The translations under genes were made by a program, and so were the position numbers. A stretch of DNA of 64,000 nt from Candidatus Obscuribacteraceae bacterium (GTDB lineage Bacteria; Cyanobacteriota; Vampirovibrionia; Obscuribacterales; Obscuribacteraceae): positions 256,001 to 320,000 of the forward strand of contig JBGAHS010000009.1 in the NCBI GenBank assembly GCA_044226015.1, in the 5' to 3' direction. How positions within the stretch are numbered: position 1 is the stretch's first letter; each line of letters starts with the position of its first letter. Under the pieces are notes generated by a model. The model saw only the letters and a list, made by a program, of their open reading frames with translations, made no database searches and had not been told where the DNA came from. Below, one piece after another: positions 5,059-49,280 of the stretch.

Positions 5059-7203
5059 CTACTTGTTTAGAAGTGATTGACGTCGTTTGACTTCTGATTC
5101 GACTTCTTCCGGGCTAATGTTGTTGACTTGCATTGGACCTGCGCAAAGTTCTCGCCATTGTGCACCGGCAAGAGCCTGTCTCACAATTACTTCGAAAACC
5201 TGTTGTCTTACTCCCATGCCATAGCTGCCTGACTGAGCGCCATTGGCGAACTGTGGTGTTGTCGGTGGTGCCATAGCAGGTTGTGGTCTTGCCGGTTGAG
5301 GAGCTGGAGCAGGTGTTGGTGCAGGCATGTTCTGGTGCCCGAATGAAGGCTGCGCAGGAGGCTGGAACTGTGGTGCCTGCGCTTGGAATCCTTGTTGGAA
5401 TCCCCCGGAGTTGAACCCGTCGCCAAATTCATTGCTCGTTAATGGTGAGTCAAATCCCGAACCAGGGTCACTTGCAAATACTCCCGGTTTTACTCCCGGA
5501 TTTGGTGCAGGAGTTGCTTCGAACAAGCCAGGTCTGGCGCCAGCCGCTACTTGCTGAGAGTCGAAAAATCCCTGGTTGTTTGCCTGTGCCGGCTCGTGAT
5601 GCTGAGGCGGCGCTGGTGCTTGTTGAGTGTGCAGATCGCGAAGAGAGAGCATCTCTTTTTGCAAATCTCGAACCATTTCTTCGGTGTTAGAGCGCAGCTC
5701 TTCCATTTGATTGCGAAGCATGTTCAGTTCGGCGTCTTTCTCGATCAGATCCATGTCTTTGCTTTCAAGAGCAGCTCTGAATTCTTCTTCTCTTGAATTG
5801 ATAAGATCTGCTGCCTCTGAATAGCGATTGTTGAGATCTTCCATTCGCTGATTGAGTTGTTCTTGAGCACTCTGCAATTCAGAGTCTTTCTGGCTCAGTA
5901 ACTGAGACAATTCGTTTTCACGTTCGTCCATGCGGCGTTGCATTTCTCGATTAGCTCTTTCAAGACTTTCGAGCTGAGCGCGCACCGCCTCATCTGTGAT
6001 TCCGCCCCCGGTGAACTCCGACAATGTTGCACCATAAGAAGTTCGTGGTGGGGCTTCTGCAGCTTGTACTGCTTCATATGCCGCACGGAAGAGGTCTCCA
6101 GAAATGCGTTGTTGACCTAATAACTCAACTAATCTGTGCAGCAGTTCTGCAGGTGGATCTGATGGGTACACTGCCATGTACGCGCACTTGAAGGTCCACG
6201 GGTCGATGAGCCCAGCGGACAGTTGGTCGGCAAGGCTTGTCACAAGCTGATCGGGAGATAGTTTCTCATTCTCTTGGGCTTCTTTGCCTTCCAGAGCCAG
6301 AACGAGCGAATCTAGCGCTGGAACGAGTTCGCCAATTGCTTTCATTGGCTCAAGTGCTGCTGTAAGAGACTCTGTAAGACTGTTCAAGTTCAAGCCGATT
6401 TCCATCAGCGTTTGATTTTGCAAAGTCTGAGACAGTCCTCGCAACACACCGGTTTGCTCTCCTGCCAGATTTTGTAGTGCGGCCAGGTTAGTTGCGCATA
6501 TGTTTAATGACTGATCAATGCTTTCGACTAGTTCAGCAGTTTTTTCGGAAACCACAGGAAGTGACTCATTCTGGCTTCTAGAGCTAGTCGCCGGAGTCGG
6601 AGCTGTTGTTTCGAAGATAGATGATGCTTGTGCTGAACTTTTCTTGGATTTCTTGTTTGAAATCGGAGCAGGAGCCGGTTCAGGTTCTGGTTCTAGTTGT
6701 GGCTCTGGAGCGGATGTTTCATCAATCTCTTCGGCTTGACTGCCCTCCAGCGCTGCAACTGCTTCATCAATGCTTTCAGCAGTGATCGGAACTCCATAAA
6801 CATTTACTGGTTCCGTATTTTGTCCATAATCGAATGAAGTTGCATCATAGTTTGCTGCGACCTGGGCCATCGCCTCAAGGTCGTAGGGGTCGCTCTGCTG
6901 ACCATACTGCTCGGTAAAATTAGGATCTTGTTGTTGTTGATAGGTTTGAGCGTTTTGCGGATCTTGTTGTCCGTAATTTTGTCCGTACTGGCTCTGTGAA
7001 TATGGGTCATTCTGCGGGTCACCATACTCGTCAGGAGGTGGAGCCGCGAAAGGGTCTGGGTAGGACGTGTTTCGTCCGCCGAGAGCACCCCTTAACTTAG
7101 CTCGTCGTGCTTGTAGGGATGATGCAGCATCCCCAGAACTATTTCCAGAACCGTTATCCACAGCTTCTGTAGCTTCCTTTTTTTTCTTGTCCGTCGTTCC
7201 CAC
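5059..7203 (-). CDS. Coiled-coil protein of unknown function (714 aa)
   Basis: Long ORF, GTG start with GAGG/AGGTG RBS; Q/P-rich disordered ends; central E/Q/L/R heptad region; compact C-terminal domain GVRQQVFEVIVRQALAGAQWRELCAGPMQVNNISPEEVE. Confidence 0.85.
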   Translation of the reverse strand: MGTTDKKKKEATEAVDNGSGNSSGDAASSLQARRAKLRGALGGRNTSYPDPFAAPPPDEYGDPQNDPYSQSQYGQNYGQQDPQNAQTYQQQQDPNFTEQYGQQSDPYDLEAMAQVAANYDATSFDYGQNTEPVNVYGVPITAESIDEAVAALEGSQAEEIDETSAPEPQLEPEPEPAPAPISNKKSKKSSAQASSIFETTAPTPATSSRSQNESLPVVSEKTAELVESIDQSLNICATNLAALQNLAGEQTGVLRGLSQTLQNQTLMEIGLNLNSLTESLTAALEPMKAIGELVPALDSLVLALEGKEAQENEKLSPDQLVTSLADQLSAGLIDPWTFKCAYMAVYPSDPPAELLHRLVELLGQQRISGDLFRAAYEAVQAAEAPPRTSYGATLSEFTGGGITDEAVRAQLESLERANREMQRRMDERENELSQLLSQKDSELQSAQEQLNQRMEDLNNRYSEAADLINSREEEFRAALESKDMDLIEKDAELNMLRNQMEELRSNTEEMVRDLQKEMLSLRDLHTQQAPAPPQHHEPAQANNQGFFDSQQVAAGARPGLFEATPAPNPGVKPGVFASDPGSGFDSPLTSNEFGDGFNSGGFQQGFQAQAPQFQPPAQPSFGHQNMPAPTPAPAPQPARPQPAMAPPTTPQFANGAQSGSYGMGVRQQVFEVIVRQALAGAQWRELCAGPMQVNNISPEEVESEVKRRQSLLNK

Positions 7204-7452
7204 TCACCTACCTCGGAGGTCCAGCTGCAAATAACTTCCTATCAGTAGATCTGTTCCACTTTGGACCGGAAATAACACATCTTCTGAAGCTGTAGCGTCT
7301 GATATTTGCGGGCTTTTTAGCTGTTTAAGCTTTCCTCTTCTGGTCTGTGTTTCTTGCCTTCTAACCTTCCTGTCAAGCTCCCCCCAAAATCAGGCGGACC
7401 TCCTGATACTAGTATAGCCGAAAAATACCGTCCGGGAATAGAATCCCGGCGC

Positions 7453-7481
7453 TTGACAAGCTCCTTCTGCAAATGTACCAT
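7453..7481 (+). promoter_or_regulatory. Sigma70-type promoter upstream of first coupling-protein-like ATPase
   Basis: TTGACA (7453-7458), 17-bp spacer, TACCAT (7476-7481). Confidence 0.7.
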
Positions 7482-7645
7482 GCTTTGTGTCTGAAATACA
7501 ACTTAAATTCAGGCTTTTACCAGGAAGGGGCTAATTTGAATTTGGCTCCAGGGACAAAAATATTGGCAGCGTTTTGTCCTCGTGAAATTTGCCGAAAAGC
7601 GTTATTATCAAAGAGGAGACTCTCCGCTAGCCTTCATTCAGGTAC

Positions 7646-10600
7646 ATGAGTTTGGAACTTTTAATTTGTCAAACCTGCGGAATTATCATTCGCGGCCGGA
7701 GCAAGACTTGCACAGGCTGCGGCGCAGTTATGTCAAAACACTCGCCGACTGTTGTGAACAATGCATTGATCGGAGCTACTGCACTTGCCGTACCTCTGCA
7801 GAATGATCCACTCGTTCTTGAGCGAACCGTCAACCATGTGATTTATGGACGAAACATGGAAGCTGACTCGAACGGAAATGGCAACGGAAACGGCAGTGGC
7901 AACGGGCATGATGGAAATGGTGCCTTCCTTTATAGCGAATCTGATTTGGGCAAGGTCGTGTTTCCTGCTAGTGAGGACGGACCTGCTTTTCAGCCGGATG
8001 AAGAGTCAACTCAACTTGAGTCTGAACCAGAACCAGAGCCCATTCCGAACGAAGCGCCACAGTGGGAGCTTACGAGCACTGGCACGCGTTTGCCGATGTT
8101 AGGAGCTGCAGTAGGCACTCCCATGGCTGCTGGTGCAGCTCACGCCCTGGCTAGTTTCAATGCTCAATCGGCCCAGTCCGCTGAGATGGCAGCCGCTGCA
8201 GCGCCGCCAGTATCAACTCCCGCCGTAGCCGAGGCATCATCTGTCGCAGCTTATGCTCCTCCGGCGAGCCCAGAATACGCTGCTCCACCAACCGCAGACG
8301 ATCCTGATGATTTCTTTTCTGGTCCAGCAGCCGCTGCTGCCTCTGGTAATGGTGCTGGTGTTCCGTCCACCGGTCAGGCTGATTCGTTTGATGCCGCCCC
8401 GCCAGGAAGATCAGCGCCTGATCCTCATACACGTGCGCCCGAACCGGAGCAACGTGAGGCCGCTCCTGTATCACATACAAACAATGCAGCTCCCGTTCAG
8501 TCGGAACCTACCCATTCAGCTCCTTCCCAAACTGCTGGTCCTATCAGCGAACCGATTCACTCCCCTCCTGTAGCGACACCTTCTACTGCTCAGTCATTTT
8601 TGAGTGCTCCGCCGCCAGGTACGTTCGCTCCTACATCAGAATCTGCCTCAGCACAGACCGACACCGCTGTGTCGACACCAGGCTTGATGGCAAACTTTTC
8701 GACTCCGTCGTCATCGCAGAATGTGAAACCGACATCGGCGCATGCTTCTTCACGTCCTGGCATGATGGACTTTTTCTCTGCAACCTCAGATTCACCTGCA
8801 GCTGGCGGAACAACCGGGACCAATGAGGCGCAAGCAAGCTCTCCACAAACGGATAGTTTGTCACCTAGTTTTATGTCTGGGGCTCAGGCGAGCATCATAC
8901 AGAATGCAATTAACGCTGCAGCAAATTTGTCGACTTCAACCAAGACAGATGTAGAGCTTCGTGAAGCTGAGCCAGAGCCAGAACCATTGAAAGCCAAGAA
9001 AAAGAGTGTTGGCAAAAAGAGCTTGCGACCTAAGCCAGTTGAGGAAGCAGAAGATGAAGAGGATTTCGCTCCGAAGTCGCTCGACAAATTTAAGAAGAGC
9101 GGACGTTCTTCTTTGACCAAGATAGACAAGGACAAAACTTCCAAAGACAAAACAAAGTCTAAGCCTGCTCCAAGCAGCAAAAAGAAATCAGGTTCGAAAT
9201 CAGCTGAAACCGAGAATTTTACTGTCGGCAATTTTAGCATTCCGATGAAAACCGCTAAAGTAGCTGGTTTGATGATTGTTTTTGCTTTTCCTGTAATGGT
9301 TTTGATCGCGAATGTGACAAGTATTATTGGTGGACTTGCCGGTGGTAATAAAGACGGCAGTCTTCCAGGTATGGCAGCACCAGCTCCATCTAGCGGACTT
9401 AATGGTGATTGGGAAATTGCTTTCATGAATCCCAGTGGTTCTGTAGGAACCGGGGTTATGACACTCAATCAGAATGGAAACAGCATTGATGGGTATGGTG
9501 CTGATAAAGGACAGTTTCAAATTAGAGGCACCGTAGATGGTGACAAAGTTCAATTCAACAAACAATATGTGCAGAATGGACAGATAGTAGGAAAGCCTAT
9601 TCTCTACGCTGGAAAAATCGATTACATGATTGATCAACTGCCACAAGGGCAGAAGTATTTTGTTCACATCTCGGGTATTTGGCAGCTGACTAAACGAGAA
9701 GGGTACAGCTGGCGTGCACAAATCAAACAGTTTCAAGGCAAGTGGGAAGGTGGTCTGACCAGAAGAGGCACTGGGACGGGCACGATTGCAGCTCATTCCG
9801 GGCCTCAGCAAGGTCCGCAAGTGTCGAGTCCTAAAAACCCGCAAGCAGCGCATGGATTCTTCTTGCAAGTTGCTCTGGGTATCATCGGAATTGGTATAGG
9901 GCTTGCCTTAGTTTCGCTGAAATTCTTTGGACCCTCTGGACTGCTGAACATCTGGGCTAAAAAGGAATACATTCCATCGCAGTTCAAAGCTCAGCATTTC
10001 AAAATGGTCGCAGAAATGGGCAAACCTCTGCGTCCAGGTGGTGTACCTCTCGGAACTCGCAGCGACTGGGGCATCCATCAGTGGTGGCGTCCTCGAAAGC
10101 TGAATATGACGCCTGAGTTGAGAGAGTCAAATCCTCATACTCTAATTCTTGGTGCTGGTGCAAAAGGCAAAAGTCGTCTGATGGCCAGCATGATTGCAAA
10201 TGATATTGAAGGCGCAGAACGTGCTGTCGTTGTTGTCGACTCTGATGGAGCGCTTATCGACCTTATGATGAACTGGATTGCAGCGCATCCTAAGGGCAAG
10301 CAAATGGCAAAACGCGTTATTGTCATTGACCCTACATATGATGGCGAAACCATTGGCTATAATCCACTGGAGTTTCCTGAAGATGGCGATTTGCAGAACG
10401 CTGCATCATCTATTGTGTTTGGATTTAAAGCAATCTATACGGAGCCTCCCGGTTCACAGAGCCAATGGAACCAGCAAACGGCAAACATTCTGCGTAACTC
10501 TGCTGTTCTGCTTATGGCTAATGGAAAGACTCTCACAGACTTACCAGTTCTTCTCTCCGATAATGATTTCCGCGATATTTTGCTGGAAAAAGTTGAGAAG

Positions 10601-11479
10601 ATTAAACACGAAAAGAGCGAGTACACCACGCTTATCGATGCCTGGTCAAACTATAAGAGACTGGCAAGAACAGACCAATGGATCAACTGGATTGAACCAA
10701 TTCTCAACCGAGTTCAACCTATGTTGGGCGACCCGCGTATTCGTCCTATTTTGACTCGAGCGAAAAGCGACCTAATTCTCTCTGACATCATCAAAGAGAA
10801 GAAAGTCTTGTTTGTGAAAATTCCGCAAGGACAACTCGATCAGAACGGTAATCTGCTGGGCAGTTTGATGGTCACTGGTATTAAGCAGGCCGCTCTGTCT
10901 TTGTCTGTTAAAGGTAAAGAGAAGAATCGCGCTTGTGCGTTATATTTGGATGAGTTTGATACCTTCATTGAGAAAGAAACATTTGATGCCATAACTTCTG
11001 AGACTCGAAAGTTCCAACTGGGTTTTGTTGGCGCAAGCAAGACATTGCAAACATTGCCTGAAGATTATCGAAACCAGCTCGTTATCAACGTTGGCATGAT
11101 GGCTATCTTTGCACTTGCTAAGAAAGATGGAGATATGCTCGGACCTCAAATGTTCCGTGTGGATGGTAGAAAAGTAAAACATCAGACCATTCAAAACGTT
11201 TTCAACAAAGTCAACTCATCTCCTCAATTTGAACTTATTTCGGACGAAGAAAAATTGAACATCGACCGCGTTGTGGGGCAAGAGGAGCGTACCTACTTCT
11301 GTTACCGAGTTGGTACAGTTGCAGGCGTGTTTAACATGCTAGCGCCCGAATTTAAGGATGTTCCAGAGAAGGACATCAACCAGGACCTCCTGGATGAAAT
11401 GTATGAAAATCGTTTGAAACATGAAGACGACGATTATGAAGAAGACGAAGATGAGGAAGAGGAAGACGACGAAGATTAG
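7646..11479 (+). CDS. Membrane-anchored VirD4/TrwB-like (FtsK-HerA superfamily) ATPase, paralog 1
   Basis: N-terminal CxxC-x10-CxxC; long disordered linker; two TM helices around a beta-rich domain; then HTLILGAGAKGKS (Walker A), VIDP...GYNPL, LYLDEF (Walker B), ETRKF; acidic tail. Confidence 0.85.
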   Translation: MSLELLICQTCGIIIRGRSKTCTGCGAVMSKHSPTVVNNALIGATALAVPLQNDPLVLERTVNHVIYGRNMEADSNGNGNGNGSGNGHDGNGAFLYSESDLGKVVFPASEDGPAFQPDEESTQLESEPEPEPIPNEAPQWELTSTGTRLPMLGAAVGTPMAAGAAHALASFNAQSAQSAEMAAAAAPPVSTPAVAEASSVAAYAPPASPEYAAPPTADDPDDFFSGPAAAAASGNGAGVPSTGQADSFDAAPPGRSAPDPHTRAPEPEQREAAPVSHTNNAAPVQSEPTHSAPSQTAGPISEPIHSPPVATPSTAQSFLSAPPPGTFAPTSESASAQTDTAVSTPGLMANFSTPSSSQNVKPTSAHASSRPGMMDFFSATSDSPAAGGTTGTNEAQASSPQTDSLSPSFMSGAQASIIQNAINAAANLSTSTKTDVELREAEPEPEPLKAKKKSVGKKSLRPKPVEEAEDEEDFAPKSLDKFKKSGRSSLTKIDKDKTSKDKTKSKPAPSSKKKSGSKSAETENFTVGNFSIPMKTAKVAGLMIVFAFPVMVLIANVTSIIGGLAGGNKDGSLPGMAAPAPSSGLNGDWEIAFMNPSGSVGTGVMTLNQNGNSIDGYGADKGQFQIRGTVDGDKVQFNKQYVQNGQIVGKPILYAGKIDYMIDQLPQGQKYFVHISGIWQLTKREGYSWRAQIKQFQGKWEGGLTRRGTGTGTIAAHSGPQQGPQVSSPKNPQAAHGFFLQVALGIIGIGIGLALVSLKFFGPSGLLNIWAKKEYIPSQFKAQHFKMVAEMGKPLRPGGVPLGTRSDWGIHQWWRPRKLNMTPELRESNPHTLILGAGAKGKSRLMASMIANDIEGAERAVVVVDSDGALIDLMMNWIAAHPKGKQMAKRVIVIDPTYDGETIGYNPLEFPEDGDLQNAASSIVFGFKAIYTEPPGSQSQWNQQTANILRNSAVLLMANGKTLTDLPVLLSDNDFRDILLEKVEKIKHEKSEYTTLIDAWSNYKRLARTDQWINWIEPILNRVQPMLGDPRIRPILTRAKSDLILSDIIKEKKVLFVKIPQGQLDQNGNLLGSLMVTGIKQAALSLSVKGKEKNRACALYLDEFDTFIEKETFDAITSETRKFQLGFVGASKTLQTLPEDYRNQLVINVGMMAIFALAKKDGDMLGPQMFRVDGRKVKHQTIQNVFNKVNSSPQFELISDEEKLNIDRVVGQEERTYFCYRVGTVAGVFNMLAPEFKDVPEKDINQDLLDEMYENRLKHEDDDYEEDEDEEEEDDED

Positions 11480-11493
11480 AACGTAAGTTTTTC

Positions 11494-11729: not shown

Positions 11730-14700
11730 ATGAACTATTTCGTTTGCCCTTCTTGCGGAGGGCTGCTTCGCAGCGCCGCGAGCAATTGTCAGAATTGCAG
11801 AACTTTTGTAACTAAACACTCGAGTACTGGCGTGGCTCATTTAAGTGCTTCTCTGCAACCACATGCTGTGGCATTGAAGGACCCATCGCTGAAAGCCGAA
11901 ACGATGATTTTGCAGCTTCAGGCTGCTGGAGTAAATGGCAGCTCAAATTTACCCAGTCAATTGCATCAGGAGTGTTCAGCTCTGCCTGCACAAGATTACG
12001 TTGATGCTCTTGCAAAGCAATCTTCTGTTATTACAAATGACTCGAATCATAATTTTTCACCAGAAGAGTCCTTACCTTGTGCTGAGTTTCCGTGGAATCC
12101 CACGCCATCTCCCGAAGCCATCGAAAGCGATTCAGCTCAAATCGATGTTCCTTCTGTTCTTCTTGGTGGTGCTGCGGGATTCGCTGCTGGTGTCCTTGTA
12201 AGTAATGTTTTTAACGCAAAGGCAGAAGTGTCTGAGAATCTTTCAAAAGTTAGAGGGAGCGTTGTCGATAAGGAAATTGTGCCTTGCGCGAATGCTGCGA
12301 CTATTGATTCGATTTACGAGAATTCGCCTGCCGCGCCTTCTCTGATTCAATCTGAAGAAATCGCTGTTTCTGATAGTGGAAATGACCTGCGCCAATTATT
12401 GTCACAGGTTGAGAGCAATCGCAGCGAGCCAGCCATTGGGCGAGACTTTTTTGCTGACGCCAATCTGAACCAGTCTTTTCTGAGGGTTGAAGAAGGTTCA
12501 TTCCAAAAGCAAAACGCTTTTTCAACCTATTTTGAATCACCTGAGCTGGCGGATGGTGCACGTGCTGAGCAATCAGTCTCAGTGGGACCCAGCGTCGAAC
12601 TTAGCGATGAGCAACGCAATCGATTGATTCAACGCCTTGTTGATGCAAATTCCAATGGCGCGGGCTCTGCTTTGCCGGAACTGTTCGAAAACTCAAATGT
12701 AGCGCCGACTCAGCCTAAACGCAAGCGATCGATTAGACGTCGACACGAGCAGCTGAGTGAAGAGAAAAGTAGCAGTGACTCGAATGTGCTTAGTTTGCTG
12801 AAAGGGCTCGCAAAGCCGTTGCTGCTATCCTTAAGTGCTCTCATTCTTTGCTCTGTTCTTGCAGTATTTGCGGTTTTGTTTGAATCTAAGAGCGAACATC
12901 TAACTGCCGTTGGCTTTATGGAAGGTCGCTATCTGACCTCGTTTCAGGATGGTTTCGGACAGGCAAACAGTGGGCAGATGGACCTGCACAAGTTTGGTGA
13001 AATGATTAAAGGAACAGGGAAGGATTTGCTTCCCGTCCCGACAGCTATCGGACAACGCTACCGCAGCTTCGAAATAAGTGGAGCCGTTTCGTCCAACGGT
13101 ATCACTCTGGTGAAGCGCTATCTACCTGAGGTTAATAAGGCTAAGAGTCCGCCGATTGTATTTGAAGGAAACTTCACTGATGTCAGTCAGAAGTTCATTT
13201 CTGGAACTTGGCACGTTCAGCGCAACGGAAAGAGTGCAGCAGGAAATTGGAATGCTCGCTTCGTCGAGACTCCGAAACTCTCAACTATGAAGTGGGGCGC
13301 CTGGCGAAACAAGCAAAATCCTATGAATTCGGCAGCTCCCACGGAGCCTGTCAAAGAGGATCTCTTTAGTAAGTATGTTTGGAATGATAATGAACCATTG
13401 CCTTCGCGTTTTGGCAAGCTGCTTTGTCTTTGTGTCCTGCTAGGTATTGCTCTTGTTCATCTATCTGCCAGATTTTTCGGGCTGCATGGTCTCCTTAATA
13501 CATGGGAAAGAGAGCGCTATGTCCCGGTTTCGCTTCGCCCCCAACAGCGAAAGATAATGAAGGAATTAGGCAGGGGAAAGGCGTCCGGTTCGCTTTTCAT
13601 GGGCACTCGAATGGATTGGCATCTGGGTGAGATATTGCTTCCACGCAAGTTGTATCTGACCAACGAGAGACGAAGCCGCAACCCGCATTTTCTTGCCATT
13701 GGAAATAGTGCGAAAGGCAAGACCAGATTGCTTGCAAATATGGCGATGCAAGACATCAGGAGTGACGACAGAGCTGTAGTCATCGTTGATTCCGAAGGCT
13801 CTCTTTGTGATCTCGTTTTGAGGACCATGGCAGCAAGTGCTGACGCCAAAGAACTTCTAAGCAGAGTTCATGTAATCGAGCCCTGCCGAACAGAATGTGT
13901 TTTGGGGTTTAACCCATTTCTTTGCGCTGATTCTGAGAATTTGCTTTCTCTAGCCAACAGTATTGTGCTCGGCTTCAAAGCCGTTTATACAGAGACTCAA
14001 AATCAACAAAATCAGTGGTCTCAGCAGACCGCGAATATTCTTCGCAATTCGGTGCTCTTGCTGATTCTAAACGGAGAGAACCTTGATGCCTTGCCGAAGC
14101 TGCTTTCAGATAACGATTTTAGAGATGTCTTACTTGAAAGTGTCGAACTGCATCACGCTGCTGAATGGAAAACTCTGATCGATGCATGGTCGAATTACAA
14201 GAAATTAGCACGTACTGATCAATGGCTAAATTGGATAGAGCCAATACTTAACCGTGTGCAACCGCTCTTGTCAGACCGTCGCATCAGCCGATTATTGAAT
14301 GCTTCAGATAACAGTGTTGACCTGGAGCAGGTATTGAAGGAGAAGCAGGTGTTGCTTCTGCGTGTTCCAGAAGGACAACTGGAAAAAGGAGGAAGTCTTT
14401 TAGGAAGTCTTATTATCACAGGTTTGAAACAAGCTGCATTGGCGCGGTTCGAGCGAGGGCGAGACGAGGAGTCACCCTGCGCTCTGTACGTTGATGAGCT
14501 AAACAATTTTATGGATGCTGAATCTTTCGATTCGTTTTGCGCCGACTCGAGAAAATTGAAAGTCGGCTTGCATGCCTCTCTCAAAACATTGCATGACTTG
14601 CCTGAGGATTTTAGAACTAAGATTCAAGTTGATTTTGGAAGCATTGCTGTATTCGCAATATCCAAGAAGGATGCTGATGTCCTCGGACCTGGAATATTCA

Positions 14701-18430: not shown

Positions 18431-18445
18431 TTATCACACTAATTA

Positions 18446-38000: not shown

Positions 38001-38004
38001 CCAT
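20075..38004 (-). CDS. Giant repeat protein 1 with C-terminal tandem LysM domains (about 5976 aa if the frameshift at ~24681-24697 is repaired)
   Basis: ORFs 24331..38004 and 20075..24340 join through the TTASDATTAPATG repeat. One unit lacks CA and has an extra C (net -1). The downstream frame is open back to that point. Contains YD/NPDG beta-hairpin repeats and LysM motifs YVVLPGDTLESIA and YTCRLGDTLRSIA. Confidence 0.85.
24474..25029. repeat. 39-bp coding tandem repeat, about 14 units (TTASDATTAPATG)
   Basis: Unit GTAGCATCGCTTGCAGTGGTGCCGGTAGCCGGAGCTGTT repeated head to tail with no spacers; the unit at 24669-24706 is 38 bp. Confidence 0.95.
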
Positions 38005-41400: not shown

Positions 41401-44400
41401 GGTACACGTGAAGGCTGTGTTTGTGAATCCCTGTCCGTCGGTACCGGTTGAGGCTGTGTCTGTGAATCCCTGTCCGTCGGTACCGGTTGAGGCTGTGTCT
41501 GTGAATCCCTGTCCGTTGGTAGATGTGTAGGCTGCGTTTGTGTATCCCTGTCCGTTGGTACACGTGAAGGCTGTGTTTGTGAATCCCTGTCCGTCGGTAC
41601 ATGTGGAGGCTGTGTTTGAGTATCCCTGTCCGTACCATGAAATGGAATCGGCAACTCTTTGGGTTCGGGACCATGTATAGGTGGCGGCAAATCTCTGTTG
41701 TCTGGACCATGAGTCGGTACGGGCATGTCTCTTCTATCGGGCAATTGACGCGGTACCGGTAGCTCTATTCTGTCTGGTCCAGTTCCGGTCTCAATAGGAC
41801 GACCAGCGCCTTGATGTGAGGCAGCCGTGTCTGTCTTGTCTGCTCCCTGCGGTGCTGGCAGCGGCAGATCCTGTACCTTCGTGCTCCATGAATCAAGACG
41901 CTCTGTTACTTGATGGGCACGTTCGCCATCAAGATTCTTGTGGGACTCTGGGTGTTCTGAAACACGTGGACTGAACGAACCCTCTTTTACTTCTTTTTGA
42001 ATGTGCTCTATAGGTAGCGATGATGCGCTGGGTTCGGCGATGAATTCTGTTCGGCTTATGATTCCATGCAGTTTTGCCTGATTGGAATTATCACCTGTTT
42101 TTTGATCAAGGTCGCTGCTCAACTTTAAGTCAGGTAGAGGTTTGCCATCAGCTCCTAACTTGATTTCCTGAGCTTTAGTGTCACTCTGTTTGGAGTCTTG
42201 TGTCGATTTTGATTCAGAACCGTGTTTATCAACGCCAGGTTTAGACTCTGAGCTGGATTTTTCACCTGTCTTGCCGTCGACAAGTCGAGGCTCTCCTGCT
42301 TTTGAATCTCCAGCCTTTGACTCGATTACTTTTCCTTCTGTAGTTGAGGCTGTTTTCGCATCAGTGTTCTTCTGCTCGCCTGGCAATTTTAGATCACTCT
42401 GATGTCCTTTGGTTTCACCAGATTTAGATTCAGGAGCAGATAATGTTCTTGAGTCAGTGCTTGCTTTGGCATCAATAAGCGTGCCGGTCTTAGGATCGAT
42501 CTGGGCACCGCTCTTAGGATCAAACTGAGCGCCGGTCTTAGGATCGATCTGGGCGCCGCTCTTAGAATCAATCTGAGCGCCGGTCTTAGGATCGATCTGA
42601 GCACCGCTCTTAGGATCAATCTGGGCACCGCTCTTAGGATCAAACTGAGCGCCGGTCTTAGGATCGATCTGAGCACCGCTCTTAGGATCAATCTGAGCAC
42701 CGCTCTTAGGATCCACCTGAGCGCCTGTCTTAGGATCTATCTGAGCGCCGGTCTTAGAATCAACCTGAGCACCAGTCTTAGGATCTATCTGAGCGCCTGT
42801 CTTAGGATCCACCTGAGCGCCTGTCTTAGGATCAACCTGAGCACCAGTCTTAGGATCTATCTGAGCGCCGGTCTTAGGATCCACCTGAGCACCAGTCTTA
42901 GGATCTATCTGAGCGCCTGTCTTAGGATCGATCTGAGCACCTGTCTTAGGATCAACCTGAGCACCAGTTTTGGGATCTACCGAATGTGATTTAGGATCAT
43001 TTGTGGCATTGGGATCGTTTGATTGAGCTGATTTAGGATCATTTGAAGCCGCTTTCGGATCTACCGGAAGACCTGTTTTTGGATCCGTTCCGGTAATTTG
43101 GACTGAAGGTAGATTTGCGGGACCGACTTGCTGATTACCAGTTGCAGCTGGTCCTTGTGGATCGTTTGTTGGCTTCTGTCCTGCTGTGTTAGATGTATTG
43201 CCTTGTCCTAGCTGACTCAGACCTATACCAGGATCTTTCGAGCCTGCTTTTCCTCCAAGATCTGATGGGATATCAGCTCCTTTTTCGGGTTTACCACTTG
43301 GCGTTTCATTTCGTCCTTGAATGATACCGCCTGTAGTGACTGCCCCAGAGCCTTTCTCCCCGAAACTAATGGGCTTTGTGCTACCGAGAGATTCTCCGGT
43401 TTGCATTCCAGATTTTTCTGGAATCACAATCTTGCTATCGCGAGCATTTGGCTCTGTGTTTTTTCCACTGAGGTCGATGACTACCCGGCTTCCATCATTC
43501 TTAAGACCGCCTTCAATCGGTTTTCCTGTCACAGGGTCTACCGATCTATCTTGAGCTGCTTTAAGAACTCCACCATCAACTTTGCCATCTGCTTTAGAAG
43601 TTTCAATTGGGCGACCTGATGCATCTAGTTTGCCAGCATCGATGTTTCTTGAGCTTTGATCAGCGAGTCTGCCGTCTTTTGCGTTCTGCTCAATGCCTTT
43701 ACCCTCAATAGTCTTGGCGTCGACAGTTTTCAAATCTCCTGTCTTAGCATCAACTTTGGCGTCTCCCAGTTTTGCTTCGCCAATGTGAGACTTCGCCTCT
43801 GAAAGAATCTTCCCGAGGTTTACGGGGTCGCTTGCCGCGCTGTCTCTGGCGCGTTGCTCGTCTTTTCCATGTATTTCCAATCCTGTTTTTGCATCAATGA
43901 GCTTGCCGTCTGCAGTCTTGATGACGTCAACGGTTTTGACACTGTCCACAGATTTATTTTGTTCGGTGACTTTGGCTGAGTCCGAAGTCTTTTGAGCGTC
44001 TTGTGTTTTTGCGTCGGTGCTTGTTGAAGTCTTAGGGTCCTGTGCTTGTCCCTTGTTTTGCTCTTGAGATTTGGCAGGGTCTTGAATCTTCGATTCAGGC
44101 TGAACTTTTACATCGCCCTCAATTTTATTCTCTTGTTTGGGCAATGTGTCATTGGTTTGCTTGGGCTGTTCTGGCTTGTATTCTTGTTTTGATTGTTCTT
44201 GCCGAATTTGCTCTTGTTTTACTTCCTGTCTTACCTGCTCATGCCTTACCTGCTCTTGCCTTGCTTCTACCGCTTTTGCTTCCGCCATTTTTAAGGCAAT
44301 TTCGAAGGCTTTAATGTAGTCCAAGTTCTGGGAACCGCCACCATCTTTTCCTCCGCCGGTGGGTGGATTGGTTGTGCCCGTTGGCGTCGTTGTTGTTGTT

Positions 44401-47400
44401 GTCGTCGTGGTCGTCGTCGTCGTCGTTGTGGTCGTCGTAGTTGTAGAGCCGCCTTCCGCTTCTTTTCTCCTTTTTTCTTCTTGCCGTCTCTCTTCTGCAA
44501 TAGCCTGCTGAATGATTGATTCTGAAATAGAGCGACTCAAAACGATTGGAGGATCAGATTTTGGATCTTTGCCATCGCCGCTCACGGGTGGTAATTGTCC
44601 GCCAGGTAATTGTCCACCAGTTGCGGGCACGGGAGTTGCAGGTGCAGGATTCGGATTCGGATTCGGATTCGGATTAGGGCTTGGAGATGGAGTCGCTAAG
44701 CGCCCTTCTTCAGTGGTTTTGGCAGGGTCTTTGACTATGGGGTTGCCTGCCGGGTCCTTGATTACAATGGGGTTGCCTGCCGGGTCTTTAACAACGGGAT
44801 CTTTACCGGGTTCAATTTTTACAACTCCGCTCGGTTTTAATATCGAAGTACCGGTAGGTTCAGGAGTTACAATCGGCACATCAGATCCCTTCGGACCTGG
44901 CACCACCTTTTCACCTGGTAATCCCGGCACAGCCGGCACTGGGTTTTGCGCACCAGGAACCTGGTTTTGTGCTTTGTCACCGGGAACGTCTGGCTTTTGT
45001 CCTGTCTTGTCACCGCCCGGAGATTGAGGCGTCACTGAATCAGGTGATTTCTGATTTCTCCAGCCACCAATATTGATATCATCAACTCTATGTCCTAATC
45101 CACCCGGAACAGGATCAGCAGGCTTTGCCTGAGGATCGGCTTGCTTTTGCGGGTCTGCAGGCTTTTGCTGAACAGTGTCTGGTGGCTTTGATGGATCGGG
45201 GATTTTTGCCGGGTCAGATTTGCCAGGTTCAACTTTTGCCGGATCAACTTTTGGATCTTCAGATTTGCTGCCACCTGTACTCTGTTCTGAATTTCCTTGT
45301 TTCTGTTCTTGTTTTGGTGCTTGAGTATTTCCGTCGCCTGTCGGAGGTGGCGCTTGCTCTGCTTTCTGTGTCCACGTGCGCGCAGCTGCTAGTTGCTGAA
45401 TCTCCTTAAATTGCGGGTTTTGCTCCTGAAGTTCTCTATAGAAATTTGCTGAGCTGAGATCTCTGTCTTTACCTCTTTGCGCTATCATGCGAGAGAATTG
45501 AGCTGCTGAATCTCTATCTGATACCAGATAATCAGCTATAGCTTTTTTGTCTTGGGATGATAGCTGTTTATACAGTTCGTCTCTTGATGATTTAGTATCT
45601 GCTTTAGATAGTTTTTGGTAGAAGTCATCGTAGACTTCCTTTTGTGTTCGCTGTTGCTCTTGTTGTTTAGCACCGCTTTGCTGAGGCTGTTCTTGCTTGC
45701 CTTCGTTCTTCGCACCTTGCTCAATTGATCCGGTTTTGCTGCCTTGTTCTTCGCTACCTTTGGGCGCGGAGTTGCCGCCTTGCTCTCCTTTTGCCGGTTC
45801 GTTTTTGCCGCCTTCTGTTTTTCCGCCGGCTTCGCCTGTTTTGTTTTCTTTATTGCCGGTCTCTCCAGGTCGAGGTGCCGGTACTGGCTCACCAGTGGAG
45901 CCAGTATCACCCTTGGTGCCAGTCGATTCCAACGTTGGGTTTTTGTATGGAACACGGATAGCACCATTTAAGTCAGCGCTATTGGCATCGATAGCTGGGG
46001 CTCCAGCTTGCTTATTATGATATTCGGTATATGCTCGCTTCTCATCTGCACTTGCTGTTGCAAGCCAAGCATCTAAAGCCGAAGATGAACCATTGCTAGT
46101 TTTATCACGAAGTCTATCTACAAAACTATAATCCTTCGCTTCTGTAGCTGCTTTGTACGCTTTGTAGGCTGCCCACTGTTCTTTGCTTGCATTTGCCTGG
46201 AAGTTATTCCAGTTTCGATCGTTTACACGATCAATCATGCTCCAGTCGCCAGCGTCGGTTCTTTCTTTGAAAACTTTGTATCCGTTGGCGATATCAGACC
46301 AGTAATCTTTCGTGCCAGCTCGATACTCTGCTAGCCCGTCATCGGCAGTATTTTTCGGATCGAGCTTGTTCATTCTGGCGAACCAGTCGTCTTGAGTTTC
46401 TTTTGAATAGCGAGAAACGAAACTGAGGTCACCTTCATTTATTCTGTCAATGAAGTCCTTCAGATGACGGCGATCTTCAACTGATGCGTGAGCCTTCCAT
46501 GCGTCATAGTGCTCTTTGTCGAGCAGATAGATATGACTGTAATCACCGGCAGCCACTCTTTCTTGATAGGCATGGTATGAAGCAGCTTCTGCTTTGATAA
46601 GAGGGTCATTAGAATCCTTATATTTTGCAAGAAGTTCGTCTCTCTCTCTTTCTGGAAGACGATTTACAAAACCAAAGTCACCAACAGCCATTTTGAGCTG
46701 CCAGGTTTTATAAATGTCTTTTTCAGTTGGATGACTGTCTAGCCATGCTTGCTTTTCGCCTTTAGACAAAGTGTCAAGGCGCCGAAAATCATCAATATGT
46801 TCTCTGTAGGACTTTAGTTCCTCTGAATATGATTTGAAGTCGGCAGCAACGTTGACTGAAACTTCCTTGCCTTTACTATCAACTCCAAATCGAATGGTGC
46901 CGATGTCTTTTGGCCAGTCTTCTCTGGCTTTATCACGGAGACTTGTAATTTTGTCGGATAGTTCTTTGTCACTAGCGGTTGTCGGCAATTGATATTGCTC
47001 TTTCAAATTGCGTGACATTTCAGCACTGAAAGGAGGTGAAGGATATTTCTTTGACAGATAATCTTCGACGAAACCATAATTTCCAGACTCGACTTTAGAT
47101 CGAAACTCACGCAGTGCCTTGCGGTCTTCGTCAGAAGCGTTCTCCCACCATTTCCGTTGCATCGCTTCGCTTTGTTTTGTTACGAAGCTATAGTCGCCGG
47201 CTTCTTTTCTTTCCTGATAATCTTGGTATTTTTGTCTTTGCTCATCAGTAAATCTTGCTGGATTGAAGATGTTTTCGCGATTGCTACCATGCAATTTTTC
47301 AATGAACGAAAAGTCTCCAGCTTTCATGCGCTGTTGAAATTCGTTGAAAGCTTCTCTGTCCTGTCTGCTTGCATTTTTCCAGAAGGAACCTAAGTTGTCG

Positions 47401-49280
47401 TCATTGATGAAGCTATAGTCACCAGCGGCTTTGGCATCATTGTATTTTTCATACATGTTGAGCTGTGCATCGCTTGCGTTTTCCAACCATTTACGAAGCT
47501 GGTTGCTGTCCATTTTATCGACGTAATCTAGATAGCCAGATTTGTCATTGAGAACGAAGTTGTTGTAAGCGCTCAACTTTTCTGCAACTGTATTGCCGGC
47601 GGCACCATCCTTGCTGCGCAGAAATGCTGCCATGTAGGCATCGTCCGGATTCTTGCCCTTTAGTTCCAGGAGAATCTGCTTGTCCTCTGCCGAAAGCTTT
47701 GGATCTTCAAGAGTTTTCTTTAGCAAGTCTTCGCGCTGTTCTTTTCTTAAAGCTTCAAATTGTGAGCGAGTTTTTCCATAGTCTCCGAGTTCCAGGCGAT
47801 CTTTTTCAGTCAGCCTTTCAATCGGCGGTAATTTTTCAGCACTTTTTTCCAGAGCACCATCTGTGCGCCCGTTATCTCTTGCTACCTTGTCTTGCAAGTA
47901 CTCTTTCTGAGCTGCTGACCAGGGGTTCTCTTTGCTGGCGCGAGCATCAGATGCTTTGTCCCACCAGGCGTCTTTGTTTTGTTCAGTGGACTTCTGGATG
48001 CTATCGAAAAATGCTTTCTTTTGTTCTGCTGAAGCGTGCTTAAACCAATCGCTAGCCTCTTCTTTTGAACCTTTGAGCTGTTTGTCTAAAAGTGCTTTTC
48101 CATATGCTTCGCGGTCTTCTGCGGAGGCAGATTTTAGCCATATATCCAGAGTCTTGTTTGGCAACTGCATGTTTGCAATAGATTCATAGTTGCCAGAATC
48201 TTTAGCTTTCTCTAGTGCTTTTCTAGTTCGATTGTACTGCTCTAGACCTCGAAGCTGGTCGGAGTTTAGGTTGTCGTAGACATATTTGAAATCACCTTTT
48301 CGCGCAGGGTCTTTTGAGTCTTCTGCTCCAATTTTATCGAATACGCTGTAATCGCCTTTGCCTATGGCGTCATGATAGCTTCTGTATGCAGCCAATTGAT
48401 CGGGCGTAGCTGTAGCCATCCATGCGCGCTGCTGTGCCGCGTTCATTTGATCTACCTGCCCGAAATATCCGGTTTTGGTCAATTCCTGGTAGCGCGCATA
48501 GTCATCTTTTAGCTTCGCATTTCTGCCTTCGTTGCCTTTGAAAAATTCCTCACGTTTTTCAGGTGTCATTCGATCGAGAAATGCATAATCATGCATCTCT
48601 ACCATTTCTCGTTGTTCGCGCCAGTCTAGTTCTCCGCGCACTGGTCCAGCTACAAGAGACGCAATTCGAGGTTTGAAACTTCCTTCTTCCGGCGCTGCAT
48701 CTATCGCACCGCTATTGGTGCCATCTGTTTTCGGGGAACTATCACCCATGATGCTTGCGTAAAGTCCTGCAACCTTGTCAATGACACCCATCGTTGTGTC
48801 TGCAATTTTGTTGCCCTGATTTTTCAAGCGCTCTGTGGCTTCTGCGCTTGTACGACTGGATCTGTAAGGCGCTCCATCTACCTGACCCTCTGCGTCAATA
48901 GTATCTACAGAAGGTAGTTGCGCTGCCAACAGACCCTGAGCGGGTTTCTTAGCCGGTTTTTCTGTGTGGTCGGTCGGGTCGGACGAGCCAAATCTGCGTC
49001 CAATTTGACAATGTTTCAAAAAACTTGCGATTGCTAAATCATCAGCGGATTCTTCAAAATATGTACCAGAAGCCTTCTTTGGCTTTTCGCTTCCAGCAGC
49101 AGGAGCGGCTTCTGCACCAACAACAGGAACCTCTGGAAGCTTGCTGGTGTCAGTCTTTGGCTTCGCGAGGTCTTTGTTCACATCTGGGTTCGACAGATCT
49201 ACGTCGAATTTTGGTGCCTCTTGTTCCGGCTGTTTCTTTCCCACTTGTGACTCTGCTGAGTCGTTTTGTTTGTCTGTCAT
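38415..49280 (-). CDS. Giant repeat protein 2 with C-terminal tandem LysM domains and zinc ribbon (3621 aa)
   Basis: Uninterrupted ORF; LysM motifs YVVATGDTLESIA and YLCRLGDTLRGIA; CPQC-x10-CASC; several internal repeat blocks; no N-terminal signal peptide. Confidence 0.92.
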   Translation of the reverse strand: MTDKQNDSAESQVGKKQPEQEAPKFDVDLSNPDVNKDLAKPKTDTSKLPEVPVVGAEAAPAAGSEKPKKASGTYFEESADDLAIASFLKHCQIGRRFGSSDPTDHTEKPAKKPAQGLLAAQLPSVDTIDAEGQVDGAPYRSSRTSAEATERLKNQGNKIADTTMGVIDKVAGLYASIMGDSSPKTDGTNSGAIDAAPEEGSFKPRIASLVAGPVRGELDWREQREMVEMHDYAFLDRMTPEKREEFFKGNEGRNAKLKDDYARYQELTKTGYFGQVDQMNAAQQRAWMATATPDQLAAYRSYHDAIGKGDYSVFDKIGAEDSKDPARKGDFKYVYDNLNSDQLRGLEQYNRTRKALEKAKDSGNYESIANMQLPNKTLDIWLKSASAEDREAYGKALLDKQLKGSKEEASDWFKHASAEQKKAFFDSIQKSTEQNKDAWWDKASDARASKENPWSAAQKEYLQDKVARDNGRTDGALEKSAEKLPPIERLTEKDRLELGDYGKTRSQFEALRKEQREDLLKKTLEDPKLSAEDKQILLELKGKNPDDAYMAAFLRSKDGAAGNTVAEKLSAYNNFVLNDKSGYLDYVDKMDSNQLRKWLENASDAQLNMYEKYNDAKAAGDYSFINDDNLGSFWKNASRQDREAFNEFQQRMKAGDFSFIEKLHGSNRENIFNPARFTDEQRQKYQDYQERKEAGDYSFVTKQSEAMQRKWWENASDEDRKALREFRSKVESGNYGFVEDYLSKKYPSPPFSAEMSRNLKEQYQLPTTASDKELSDKITSLRDKAREDWPKDIGTIRFGVDSKGKEVSVNVAADFKSYSEELKSYREHIDDFRRLDTLSKGEKQAWLDSHPTEKDIYKTWQLKMAVGDFGFVNRLPERERDELLAKYKDSNDPLIKAEAASYHAYQERVAAGDYSHIYLLDKEHYDAWKAHASVEDRRHLKDFIDRINEGDLSFVSRYSKETQDDWFARMNKLDPKNTADDGLAEYRAGTKDYWSDIANGYKVFKERTDAGDWSMIDRVNDRNWNNFQANASKEQWAAYKAYKAATEAKDYSFVDRLRDKTSNGSSSALDAWLATASADEKRAYTEYHNKQAGAPAIDANSADLNGAIRVPYKNPTLESTGTKGDTGSTGEPVPAPRPGETGNKENKTGEAGGKTEGGKNEPAKGEQGGNSAPKGSEEQGSKTGSIEQGAKNEGKQEQPQQSGAKQQEQQRTQKEVYDDFYQKLSKADTKSSRDELYKQLSSQDKKAIADYLVSDRDSAAQFSRMIAQRGKDRDLSSANFYRELQEQNPQFKEIQQLAAARTWTQKAEQAPPPTGDGNTQAPKQEQKQGNSEQSTGGSKSEDPKVDPAKVEPGKSDPAKIPDPSKPPDTVQQKPADPQKQADPQAKPADPVPGGLGHRVDDINIGGWRNQKSPDSVTPQSPGGDKTGQKPDVPGDKAQNQVPGAQNPVPAVPGLPGEKVVPGPKGSDVPIVTPEPTGTSILKPSGVVKIEPGKDPVVKDPAGNPIVIKDPAGNPIVKDPAKTTEEGRLATPSPSPNPNPNPNPNPAPATPVPATGGQLPGGQLPPVSGDGKDPKSDPPIVLSRSISESIIQQAIAEERRQEEKRRKEAEGGSTTTTTTTTTTTTTTTTTTTTPTGTTNPPTGGGKDGGGSQNLDYIKAFEIALKMAEAKAVEARQEQVRHEQVRQEVKQEQIRQEQSKQEYKPEQPKQTNDTLPKQENKIEGDVKVQPESKIQDPAKSQEQNKGQAQDPKTSTSTDAKTQDAQKTSDSAKVTEQNKSVDSVKTVDVIKTADGKLIDAKTGLEIHGKDEQRARDSAASDPVNLGKILSEAKSHIGEAKLGDAKVDAKTGDLKTVDAKTIEGKGIEQNAKDGRLADQSSRNIDAGKLDASGRPIETSKADGKVDGGVLKAAQDRSVDPVTGKPIEGGLKNDGSRVVIDLSGKNTEPNARDSKIVIPEKSGMQTGESLGSTKPISFGEKGSGAVTTGGIIQGRNETPSGKPEKGADIPSDLGGKAGSKDPGIGLSQLGQGNTSNTAGQKPTNDPQGPAATGNQQVGPANLPSVQITGTDPKTGLPVDPKAASNDPKSAQSNDPNATNDPKSHSVDPKTGAQVDPKTGAQIDPKTGAQIDPKTGAQVDPKTGAQIDPKTGAQVDPKTGAQVDPKTGAQIDPKTGAQVDSKTGAQIDPKTGAQVDPKSGAQIDPKSGAQIDPKTGAQFDPKSGAQIDPKSGAQIDPKTGAQIDSKSGAQIDPKTGAQFDPKSGAQIDPKTGTLIDAKASTDSRTLSAPESKSGETKGHQSDLKLPGEQKNTDAKTASTTEGKVIESKAGDSKAGEPRLVDGKTGEKSSSESKPGVDKHGSESKSTQDSKQSDTKAQEIKLGADGKPLPDLKLSSDLDQKTGDNSNQAKLHGIISRTEFIAEPSASSLPIEHIQKEVKEGSFSPRVSEHPESHKNLDGERAHQVTERLDSWSTKVQDLPLPAPQGADKTDTAASHQGAGRPIETGTGPDRIELPVPRQLPDRRDMPVPTHGPDNRDLPPPIHGPEPKELPIPFHGTDRDTQTQPPHVPTDRDSQTQPSRVPTDRDTQTQPTHLPTDRDSQTQPQPVPTDRDSQTQPQPVPTDRDSQTQPSRVPTERDTQTQPTHLPTDRDTQTQPPQVPTDRDTQTQAPQVPTDRDTQTHPTRVPTDRDPHVPTDKDTQTQPQHGPVDRDTDRTPPTPGPTTNDGEQTVPKPDGRPKPPEHPLPDREHHPQQGPDSTPIDKDKTHEPIDLPIPIEKPVNPDIPATSSNHNDESKTPLPGMPVPPEHPPTSLPPQEIPISNQGGHGTNSGTEPGKLEQSPTQSPSSQGLPNTQPAETSTRTDGSHLQTDLEERHTRSHRDDADAAQHEQSQHPTQQAQHPTSEFIVESLLEQFRHQPPHAIPQGGHQAEQAQHGQAENMPLTSAEQIATNLNLIKQLEADQNAISRSEDKHIDVIEQSSQASFQIQNFIAPLIDPVIQRSDFDAPSAHLPIANDAPPLSGSVQEAISHIPPSIKQDLPNTIADALAPMIAENSPAISPIAGEIVNGLVTGNMHGEGTISGAADEISSAGSFINLGEQVAEVISNPSFAEQISALNVADPNQLVEKLEDLDQAMRTQKAKDLETEKDRKEQEDRLREEEAKRYAAAMLAALKARQAQEEANRIKAQKDLLNLERRQNYVVATGDTLESIAQKKLFNKKLAVLIYEINKSRIPVTVRDEKRYLQLKPKLILQLPSQMEVKRFQTRWFGTQQENFEYDFDFEEKPSAKAASVPKQFSIAEQKRKANVEAALGKLPEQEVDDGRIRYLCRLGDTLRGIAMRHPAIKDATLWKLIAELNGLSTEIDMGGNPVAELERGATLILPLPQEIAAFREKQKKISLSLPKPDLANKKKCPQCSRMCRINSPICASCNYEFDGSPKTGQTSSAPIQLAPPVISERIEEDELPAVDDSEDSQYITHSRIFAGARDYLAQAKNTRQTFDEAQTPKSGPSSSPLSQELADDTGSGDRRLTSRENRNQIKDLSNDCRLVSFNNTDGQAGFKLRLEYRRNEYWLPVVLYEVGQDSSLRHEYKMDGTKDTKSIQLPLAQCRQLANNDLNKNWQKYLKVFLQSVSA
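41165..41633. repeat. 39-bp coding tandem repeat, about 12 units (PTDRD[ST]QTQPxxV)
   Basis: Visible in DNA (GAATCCCTGTCCGTCGGTAC...GGCTGTGT) and in the protein; one unit is shortened. Confidence 0.9.
42474..42977. repeat. 24-bp coding tandem repeat, 21 units (DPK[TS]GAQ[IVF])
   Basis: Counted from the translation; DNA unit similar to ATCTGAGCGCCGGTCTTAGGATC with synonymous variation. Confidence 0.95.
44385..44444. repeat. Poly-threonine tract (20 Thr) in giant protein 2
   Basis: 20 consecutive NGT triplets on the + strand (ACN codons on the minus strand), using all four Thr codons. Confidence 0.9.

Follow-up and report, generated by a model that had tools for sequence, protein, structure and literature searches.

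A core chromosomal locus of Obscuribacterales with VirD4-like and DUF87 ATPases and LysM-tailed giant proteins: a possible export module

We analysed a 64,000-nucleotide stretch of contig JBGAHS010000009.1 (hereafter referred to as the window) from the genome of a Candidatus Obscuribacteraceae bacterium (8.19 Mb, 92% complete; G000), in which a 44-kb block encodes a coiled-coil protein, two VirD4-like membrane ATPases, an ATPase with a DUF87 domain and two giant proteins ending in LysM domains. This block is a vertically inherited core chromosomal locus of the order Obscuribacterales, and is real, order-defining and apparently undescribed. Its function is proposed tentatively: the reading that we favour, at slightly less than even odds, is an export module derived from a type IV secretion system (T4SS), driven by coupling proteins and with the giants as cargo. 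The full-text literature covered, which included few subscription journals and no supplements, yielded no description of the locus or of DUF87-linked secretion.

Gene layout

The listing of open reading frames (ORFs) reproduced the coordinates given for the 44-kb block by the first-pass annotation, a description made from the DNA sequence alone. The features, with protein lengths in amino acids (aa), are as follows.

5059-7203, minus strand: coiled-coil protein, 714 aa, divergent from the ATPase genes
7646-11479, plus strand: VirD4-like ATPase A, 1277 aa (TrwB_AAD_bind match, HHalign)
11730-14969, plus strand: VirD4-like ATPase B, 1079 aa, tandem paralogue of ATPase A
15227-18430, plus strand: DUF87/HerA-clade ATPase, 1067 aa (Pfam DUF87)
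18446-19804, minus strand: ORF of 452 aa, a local insertion
20075-24340, minus strand: giant 1, 3' part, 1421 aa (LysM and DUF7718-like matches)
24331-38004, minus strand: giant 1, 5' part, 4557 aa, colinear with the single-ORF orthologues of genomes G007 and G006
24474-25028, minus strand: 39-bp tandem repeat, 14.4 copies, inside giant 1
38415-49280, minus strand: giant 2, 3621 aa (LysM and DUF7718 matches)
3046-4563, plus strand: SelA (Pfam), flank kept in relatives, context only
1497-2522, minus strand: SpoU-family rRNA methylase (Pfam), flank kept in relatives, context only
1-927, minus strand: tuf, housekeeping flank, the product of which we take to be EF-Tu from its N-terminal motif

Distribution and synteny

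The distribution of the components was determined in 39 genomes of the same order and 21 genomes of other orders. The LysM tail was found in all 39 order genomes, the coiled-coil protein in 38 (in some by its C-terminal motif alone) and the VirD4-like domain in 33, with none of these three present in the 21 other genomes. DUF87 was detected in 35/39 order genomes and in 3/21 others, as weak matches to the core only. A 400-genome sample of the phylum yielded six further matching genomes, with short flanks. Gene order was assessed on 74 related loci, 67 of which were counted after the removal of seven divergent second-family copies with neither neighbour. In all 51 loci with sufficient flanking sequence, the VirD4-like gene lay upstream from DUF87; in 45 of these 51, there was a convergent LysM tail no more than 3.5 kb from DUF87. 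The coiled-coil gene was located 9-10 kb upstream or closer in 42/43. selA or spoU was kept at the locus in 30/43 cases, a flank-limited count, and longer maps of 15 relatives placed the locus next to tuf and ribosomal genes. Arrays in the mapped relatives contained one to three tail-bearing genes encoding up to 6360 aa, with none there in G022. The fixed site at tuf, together with a GC content of 44-54% (47% contig-wide), ruled out a mobile element and agrees with the earlier description of the block as chromosomal. Downstream from the locus (window 55447-63479) lie a Flp pilus RcpC/CpaB gene and genes for a GGDEF protein, a GH8 glycoside hydrolase and a PMT-family glycosyltransferase, a stretch not kept with the locus in the other genera mapped.

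A small gene encoding 165-210 aa gave a match in 49/74 loci and lies directly 3' of DUF87 in the mapped genera; it is missing from the window. It was found elsewhere in nine genomes, in four of which a tail-bearing gene is no more than about 1 kb away, two different paralogues being involved. The orthologue in the source genome (C1:47179-47742; L132:11179-11742) is divergent from another gene for a LysM-DUF7718 protein.

The 452-aa ORF had been considered a possible nuclease-fold protein. It has no Pfam or NCBIfam match and was found in none of the 74 related loci, and was rejected as a nuclease of the system. A hidden Markov model (HMM) of an N-terminal leader matched 12 proteins of the source genome, the 452-aa ORF included, and gave no matches in shuffled or internal controls. 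The leader has the form L[ST]xxELL...L..EAW followed by a hydrophobic segment; the C-termini attached to it are unrelated and include Macro, alpha/beta-hydrolase, PHP and receiver domains (the 11 other ORFs are L261-L271). The leader-bearing proteins appear effector-like. The 12-member HMM does not match the giants, and a genome-wide leader of signal-less proteins was discarded, because L..[DE]A[WYF] was only about twofold enriched (43/5722 versus 0.33%).

The VirD4-like ATPases and the coiled-coil protein

ATPases A and B are 41-42% identical, and each begins with a CxxC-CxxC zinc ribbon followed by a long low-complexity linker (rich in Pro/Ala/Ser in A). In ATPase A, a transmembrane (TM) segment at about aa 539, a small beta domain and a second TM segment at about aa 738 precede the P-loop domain (aa 818-1255). 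The first-pass annotation of two membrane proteins of the VirD4/TrwB kind is supported by two strong hydrophobic segments in each protein and by TrwB/VirD4 matches, which are weak (ATPase A versus Pfam TrwB_AAD_bind, E = 8e-6; NCBIfam VirD4/TraD below cut-off). Profile comparison was clearer: the family profile (67 sequences) aligned with the true VirD4 proteins of the genome at 86-89% in HHalign and with VirB4 at 7-13%, which shows ATPases A and B to be of the VirD4 type in sequence and provides the locus with a coupling protein in the T4SS sense. The Walker A motif (G...GK) is invariant (67/67), as is the Walker B Asp, and the catalytic Glu is present in 52/67 sequences. Searches of PDB sequences with the VirD4-like domain gave no informative match. 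Most genera have one full copy, the tandem duplication being found in the source genome. A third paralogue (64% identity) is encoded far from the locus (G000:C9:476769-481106; L122), and a 1097-aa protein (C10:411316-414606; L127) shares the zinc ribbon and the beta domain of these ATPases, but no ATPase was detected in it.

The 714-aa protein is soluble. Its middle part is helical and conserved, a coiled coil spans about aa 400-520, and the C-terminal domain is small and likewise conserved. An SMC-like segment of the coiled-coil type (aa 405-519) bears out its first description, and no match was found in Pfam or the ESM Atlas. We consider it a candidate adaptor.

The DUF87/HerA-clade ATPase

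The 1067-aa protein consists of an alpha/beta N-terminal domain (about aa 40-360), an ATPase core and a C-terminal domain that is helical and contains a cluster of conserved Cys residues (C961, C964, C968 and C1024, in 67-69 of 70 sequences); identity across the bacterial family is 76-92%. Its DUF87 match agrees with the HerA-type ATPase first proposed. The nearest NCBIfam models included CedD (E = 3e-16) and HerA, with HerA_antiphage at E = 4e-13, far below cut-off, and the HerA-type scores were 31-49 bits versus cut-offs of 800-970. The only candidate for an adjoining nuclease or sirtuin, as in HerA-NurA pairs, was the nonconserved 452-aa ORF. No VirB4 HMM matched the protein, and HHalign against VirB4 gave 0.4-4%. 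The predicted structure had a mean predicted local distance difference test (pLDDT) score of 62.9, with good terminal domains and a poor core; its best Foldseek match, spanning some 900 columns, was TrwK/VirB4 (E = 2e-8, with a TMq of 0.24 and a root-mean-square deviation of 18 A), HerA being matched only at E≥6e-3. Given the HerA/CedD sequence profiles and the lack of an N-terminal link to VirB4, we call the protein HerA-clade; it is possibly VirB4-like. The full-length DUF87 ATPase family is very large (2,920 clusters at 50% identity, for matches at E≤1e-30). In G037, a second-family genome, three DUF87 paralogues lie within 30 kb (C129; L032-L033), facing a kinase-TPR gene and a signal-bearing giant of about 6,300 aa.

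The giant proteins and their tail

The ORFs of 4557 and 1421 aa form a single gene of about 5,970 codons, split by a frameshift in the 39-bp tandem repeat: the unit at 24681-24718 has 38 bp, and the other units of the 14 have 39 or 36 bp. In G007 and G006, the orthologous gene is uninterrupted, with 5788 and 6362 codons, respectively. The frameshift is likely, though unproven, to be an assembly error, because short-read contigs from four runs all end within the repeat, which was never spanned. The 4557-aa part is acidic and rich in Lys at its N-terminus. It also has long beta-turn repeats of Asp/Gly/Thr, which gave weak RHS-type matches, and a Thr/Ala repeat. The 1421-aa part contains acidic repeats, LysM domains at about aa 1020-1075 and 1172-1230, and a DUF7718-like domain (1327-1414). 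Giant 2 has a helical repeat region and Pro/Thr/Gln repeats, followed by LysM, LysM, a zinc ribbon and DUF7718.

PF01476 (LysM) scored over cut-off in both giants. LysM was therefore correctly placed in them by the first-pass annotation, except that the 4557-aa ORF lacks it, the tail being encoded by the overlapping 1421-aa ORF. Similarly, of the N- and C-terminal modules that the giants had been said to share, the C-terminal one was found (48% identity across some 230 aa and 40% across DUF7718), whereas a common N-terminal module was not supported by BLASTP of the first 300 aa (E = 0.62). The absence of signal peptides was confirmed: both giants have a hydrophilic N-terminus and no TM segment, lipobox or pilin leader. 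From genus to genus the tail is constant but the fronts show no relationship, and proteins from outside the genus resemble the window giants almost exclusively in the tail. In the source genome, 11 proteins carry the tail or part of it. The ESM Atlas gave weak LysM leads at most. No RTX Pfam match and no toxin family match were obtained for the window giants, and no immunity-like gene adjoins them within the window; their C-terminus is constant, rather than a variable toxin followed by an immunity gene.

The source genome has 65 ORFs of at least 2000 aa, such as C12:174215-217387 (14,391 aa) and C12:217947-250850. Most of the 60 longest bear a Sec-type signal, unlike the window giants; an RPG motif is often present, and the C-terminus has a K[TN]AA helix that is conserved. 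These signal-bearing giants constitute a separate family, with what may be a lineage-specific C-terminal sorting signal.

Secretion machinery elsewhere in the genome

The Pfam scan of 20 window ORFs revealed no relaxase, VirB or WXG100 family, as the first-pass annotation had stated for the window, but the genome does contain relaxase-like and VirB3/4/8-like genes outside the window. The window scan likewise yielded no channel gene (VirB3/6/8/10), and no relaxase, channel gene, nuclease or integrase is conserved at the locus in relatives. A cluster at C10:63-72 kb (G000:C10:63038-71720; L121) contains PrgI-like, VirB4, VirB8-like, VirD4 and Replic_Relax genes, and a second PrgI-like/VirB4/VirB8-like set (C1:182-186 kb; C1:182288-186376; L276), with a VirB4 gene split in the source assembly, adjoins genes that are Tad-like pilin genes by eye. 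The PrgI and VirB8 labels were given by eye and by position, with no Pfam match. The C10-type VirB4 was found in 36/39 order genomes, and either paralogue in 39/39, with no match in the 21 others; the Replic_Relax-like gene was absent from beside the T4SS core in two of four relatives mapped. A complete T4SS with relaxase elsewhere, put forward at the outset as a competing account of the ATPases, is thus half present, as a core with VirD4, VirB4 and Replic_Relax. Given this core, the locus is less likely to be a machine complete in itself than an accessory to a T4SS whose parts are dispersed, and the most apt view of the window ATPases is that of an additional module, receptor and motor, in a lineage that has such a T4SS on its chromosome. 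A MobA/VirD2-type relaxase and a canonical VirD4 (G000:C2:2542-6035; L126) are encoded on a 70-kb contig that is probably a plasmid or mobile element.

Other secretion systems were sought in the 92%-complete source genome. No match was obtained for VipB (type VI secretion system (T6SS) sheath) or WXG100 (type VII (T7SS)), and none of the 22 HlyD matches (type I (T1SS)) exceeded cut-off; secretin gave two matches. 

DUF87 relatives outside the order

Gene context in other phyla was examined on plasmids and in one soil-metagenome scan, ranked by the Streptomyces clavuligerus sequence and covering 11 of 64 parts, from which the best 80 loci were taken; ORF calls were noisy at high GC. DUF87 relatives occur on diverse plasmids. 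Four distinct full-length relatives (32-36% identity) come from plasmids of Streptomyces, Rhodococcus and Embleya. In all four, a small membrane protein (with a zinc ribbon in three) comes before DUF87 and a signal-less low-complexity protein after it; two of these low-complexity proteins have, by eye, Thr/Asp/Gly repeats like those of giant 1. Downstream from more distant relatives, in S. clavuligerus and on a Nocardia plasmid, comes an ADP-ribosyltransferase (Pfam E = 2e-24) or a protein with a lipase motif, with a small gene or an ankyrin gene next in line. In P0171, DUF87 is fused to the domain of the upstream partner (E = 7e-5); a second case, P0144, was recognised by eye alone. No OB-like partner was found in the source genome. 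Actinobacterial operons at L159:5354-11418, L158:5263-12830 and L160:1270-7974 have the order membrane protein, DUF87, toxin-like protein with an acidic front, immunity-like gene, the toxin and immunity features being recognised by eye or by Pfam. One operon on a Planktothrix plasmid (L118:7950-13596) combines a DUF87 relative and an AAA ATPase with five small membrane proteins that are paralogues of one another. The S. clavuligerus-type upstream protein, suspected by eye to be a VirD4, was not confirmed as such (HHalign 0.1-6.5%), a result that weighs against the export reading set out below.

The actinobacterial operons are candidates for an unrecognised form of polymorphic toxin delivery. 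In a broader reading, which we consider doubtful, the DUF87 family would be the motor of an unrecognised cross-phylum secretion system (anchor, DUF87 and signal-less cargo) delivering toxins in Actinobacteria and, in Obscuribacterales, merged with the dispersed T4SS and exporting LysM giants and leader-bearing effectors. If true, it would point to a host-contact or predatory lifestyle of the order. The function of DUF87 is approachable in cultivable Streptomyces, in which a relative lies directly upstream from an ADP-ribosyltransferase gene.

Proposed function and alternative explanations

For the window locus, we infer a path of recognition, export and LysM binding. The VirD4-like protein would act as the substrate receptor and the constant tail as the recognised signal; the coiled-coil protein and the product of the small gene would be adaptors, and DUF87 would supply a second motor. 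The channel would be borrowed from the dispersed PrgI-VirB4-VirB8-like clusters and TrbI-like proteins of the order, and the exported giants would bind peptidoglycan or chitin through LysM, for adhesion or contact with another cell. This interpretation draws on the distribution of the parts, which the separate VirB4 family shares (39/39 and 0/21), on the adjacency counts of 51/51 and 45/51, on the arrays of giants with a constant tail, and on the lack of Sec signals in the giants, in a genome in which VipB, WXG100 and HlyD gave nothing over threshold. It also draws on the proximity of the relocated small gene to tail-bearing genes in 4/9 genomes, on the gene order around the actinobacterial relatives, on the P0171 fusion and on the two relatives with no relaxase-like gene beside their T4SS core.

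Several observations weigh against this interpretation. In a control of 400 kb from four other genera, 77 of 317 neighbour pairs had both orthologues in the source genome, and 61 of these 77 were still adjacent, as were three of four convergent pairs; adjacency within the family is therefore weak evidence. Related genomes are not independent samples, the housekeeping genes selA and spoU likewise stay attached to the locus, and the giants lie on the opposite strand from the ATPases. The co-occurrence and adjacency proposed as a check by the first-pass annotation thus hold in the main family (matching distribution, 51/51 and 45/51), but not in the second, in which seven DUF87 loci have no VirD4 or LysM gene in their flanks; in G037, selA is still accompanied by the coiled-coil and VirD4-like genes, but the three DUF87 copies and the tail gene are found on other contigs, in different surroundings. 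Five of the nine genomes with a relocated small gene show no proximity to a tail gene (one contig being too short), and one or two block moves could account for the link. The 11 LysM-module proteins are scattered across the source genome, the CxxC zinc ribbon in 22 of 31 aligned tails suits a cytoplasmic location, as does the best match of the first LysM to the cytoplasmic protein Kbp (E = 0.014), and the four TrbI-like matches fell below cut-off. The VirB4 likeness of DUF87 is a weak fold match, from a model with a poor ATPase core, with an HHalign value of 0.4% for the N-terminal domain and profiles favouring HerA/CedD. Outside the order, the S. clavuligerus-type partner was present in only 10 of the best 80 metagenome loci, many of which had housekeeping genes or no clear downstream ORF, and the Planktothrix layout, which differs from the actinobacterial ones, counts against generality.

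Some of these points fit an alternative that we judge unlikely but serious: the ATPases would move DNA, for uptake, chromosomal transfer or repair, as do Ced/HerA or non-canonical VirB4 and VirD4, with the giants neighbours by inherited order. The CedD and HerA models, the background synteny, the lost linkage in the second family and the Replic_Relax gene beside the other T4SS core are consistent with it, and VirB4-VirD4 pairs with non-canonical channels transfer DNA (excerpt of PMC12857230). However, no relaxase, nuclease or integrase is conserved at the locus, the relaxase adjoins the other VirD4, the relocated small gene lies near LysM-module genes in 4/9 genomes, and the actinobacterial relatives precede toxin-like genes.

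It is less probable still that the giants remain inside the cell, as cytoplasmic or inner-membrane scaffolds docking on the ATPase complex through their LysM and zinc-ribbon tail. The zinc ribbons in the tails and at the ATPase N-termini, the Kbp-like LysM and the largely disordered Pro/Gln/acidic linkers would suit such a role, whereas the beta-turn repeats of giant 1, with their weak RHS-type matches, and an extreme length and sequence variation that would be better suited to surface proteins argue for export, and VirD4-type ATPases normally feed a channel. We think it very unlikely that the giants are structural subunits assembled by the ATPases, for example into a T4SS-anchored adhesive filament: they are always present, with a conserved tail, one to three copies at the locus and no adjoining immunity-like gene within the window, but they lack a TM segment, lipobox or pilin leader, and the front of one genus bears no relationship to that of another, which is not typical of structural subunits. 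Finally, a HerA-type anti-phage system, suggested by the HerA_antiphage match and the plasmid relatives, is extremely improbable for a gene that is fixed in position, 76-92% identical and near-universal in the order, unlike defence islands, and that has no conserved effector nuclease.

The export reading would have consequences for a lineage known here from metagenome assemblies alone, for which literature searches found nothing on interaction with other cells. T4SS-type ATPases that are order-wide, order-specific and maintained next to ribosomal genes, with variable LysM giants, would indicate a contact-dependent lifestyle, parallel to that of Patescibacteria and the predatory relative Vampirovibrio. 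A function would also be gained for the ATPases that combine DUF87 with N- and C-terminal domains, a family that is very large and has none assigned.

Comparison with known systems

The locus would work like a coupling-protein export module, yet as tested it falls outside conjugative T4SS, T1SS, T6SS and T7SS. Some effector T4SSs read a conserved C-terminal substrate domain, such as XVIPCD in Xanthomonas and BID in Bartonella. The locus resembles them in having a variable front, a constant C-terminal module and a VirD4 nearby; this likeness is one of layout, not sequence, and the window giants are 10-fold larger. With VirD4 coupling proteins (TrwB; Legionella DotL-DotM/N/Y/Z), ATPases A and B share a membrane-anchored P-loop ATPase and VirD4 profile similarity, but they have a zinc ribbon and a 500-aa linker before the TM segments, with a beta domain between these segments; the locus has no relaxase or channel genes, and the DUF87 partner replaces canonical VirB4. 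Coupling proteins recruit substrates, sometimes via adaptors (excerpt of PMC12857230).

The T4SS of Patescibacteria (monoderm, MPF_FATA-like) is chromosomal, lineage-wide and mostly relaxase-free, with a PrgI and VirB4 core and many distant VirD4 homologues (PMC12102498, in part). Obscuribacterales have an analogous PrgI-VirB4-VirB8-like-VirD4 cluster, but away from the ATPase-giant locus, and neither LysM giants nor a DUF87 partner are mentioned in the available portion of that paper. In Vampirovibrio, the T4SS is of the T-type and partly plasmid-borne (PMC4451040, excerpt), and giants of Omnitrophota come after T2SS (type II)- or T4SS-like genes in a text with no mention of Melainabacteria in the part available (bioRxiv 10.1101/2023.11.21.568195). 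The 1067-aa ATPase resembles HerA/CedD-clade ATPases (PF01935, DUF87) in its core sequence, but has additional N- and C-terminal domains, no NurA/Sir2 partner and scores far below cut-offs. Lastly, the actinobacterial DUF87 loci share with polymorphic toxin systems, as set out in part of Zhang et al. 2012 (PMC3482391), a carrier-toxin-immunity-like order, whereas the constant part of the window giants is C-terminal, with no toxin domain or immunity gene found.

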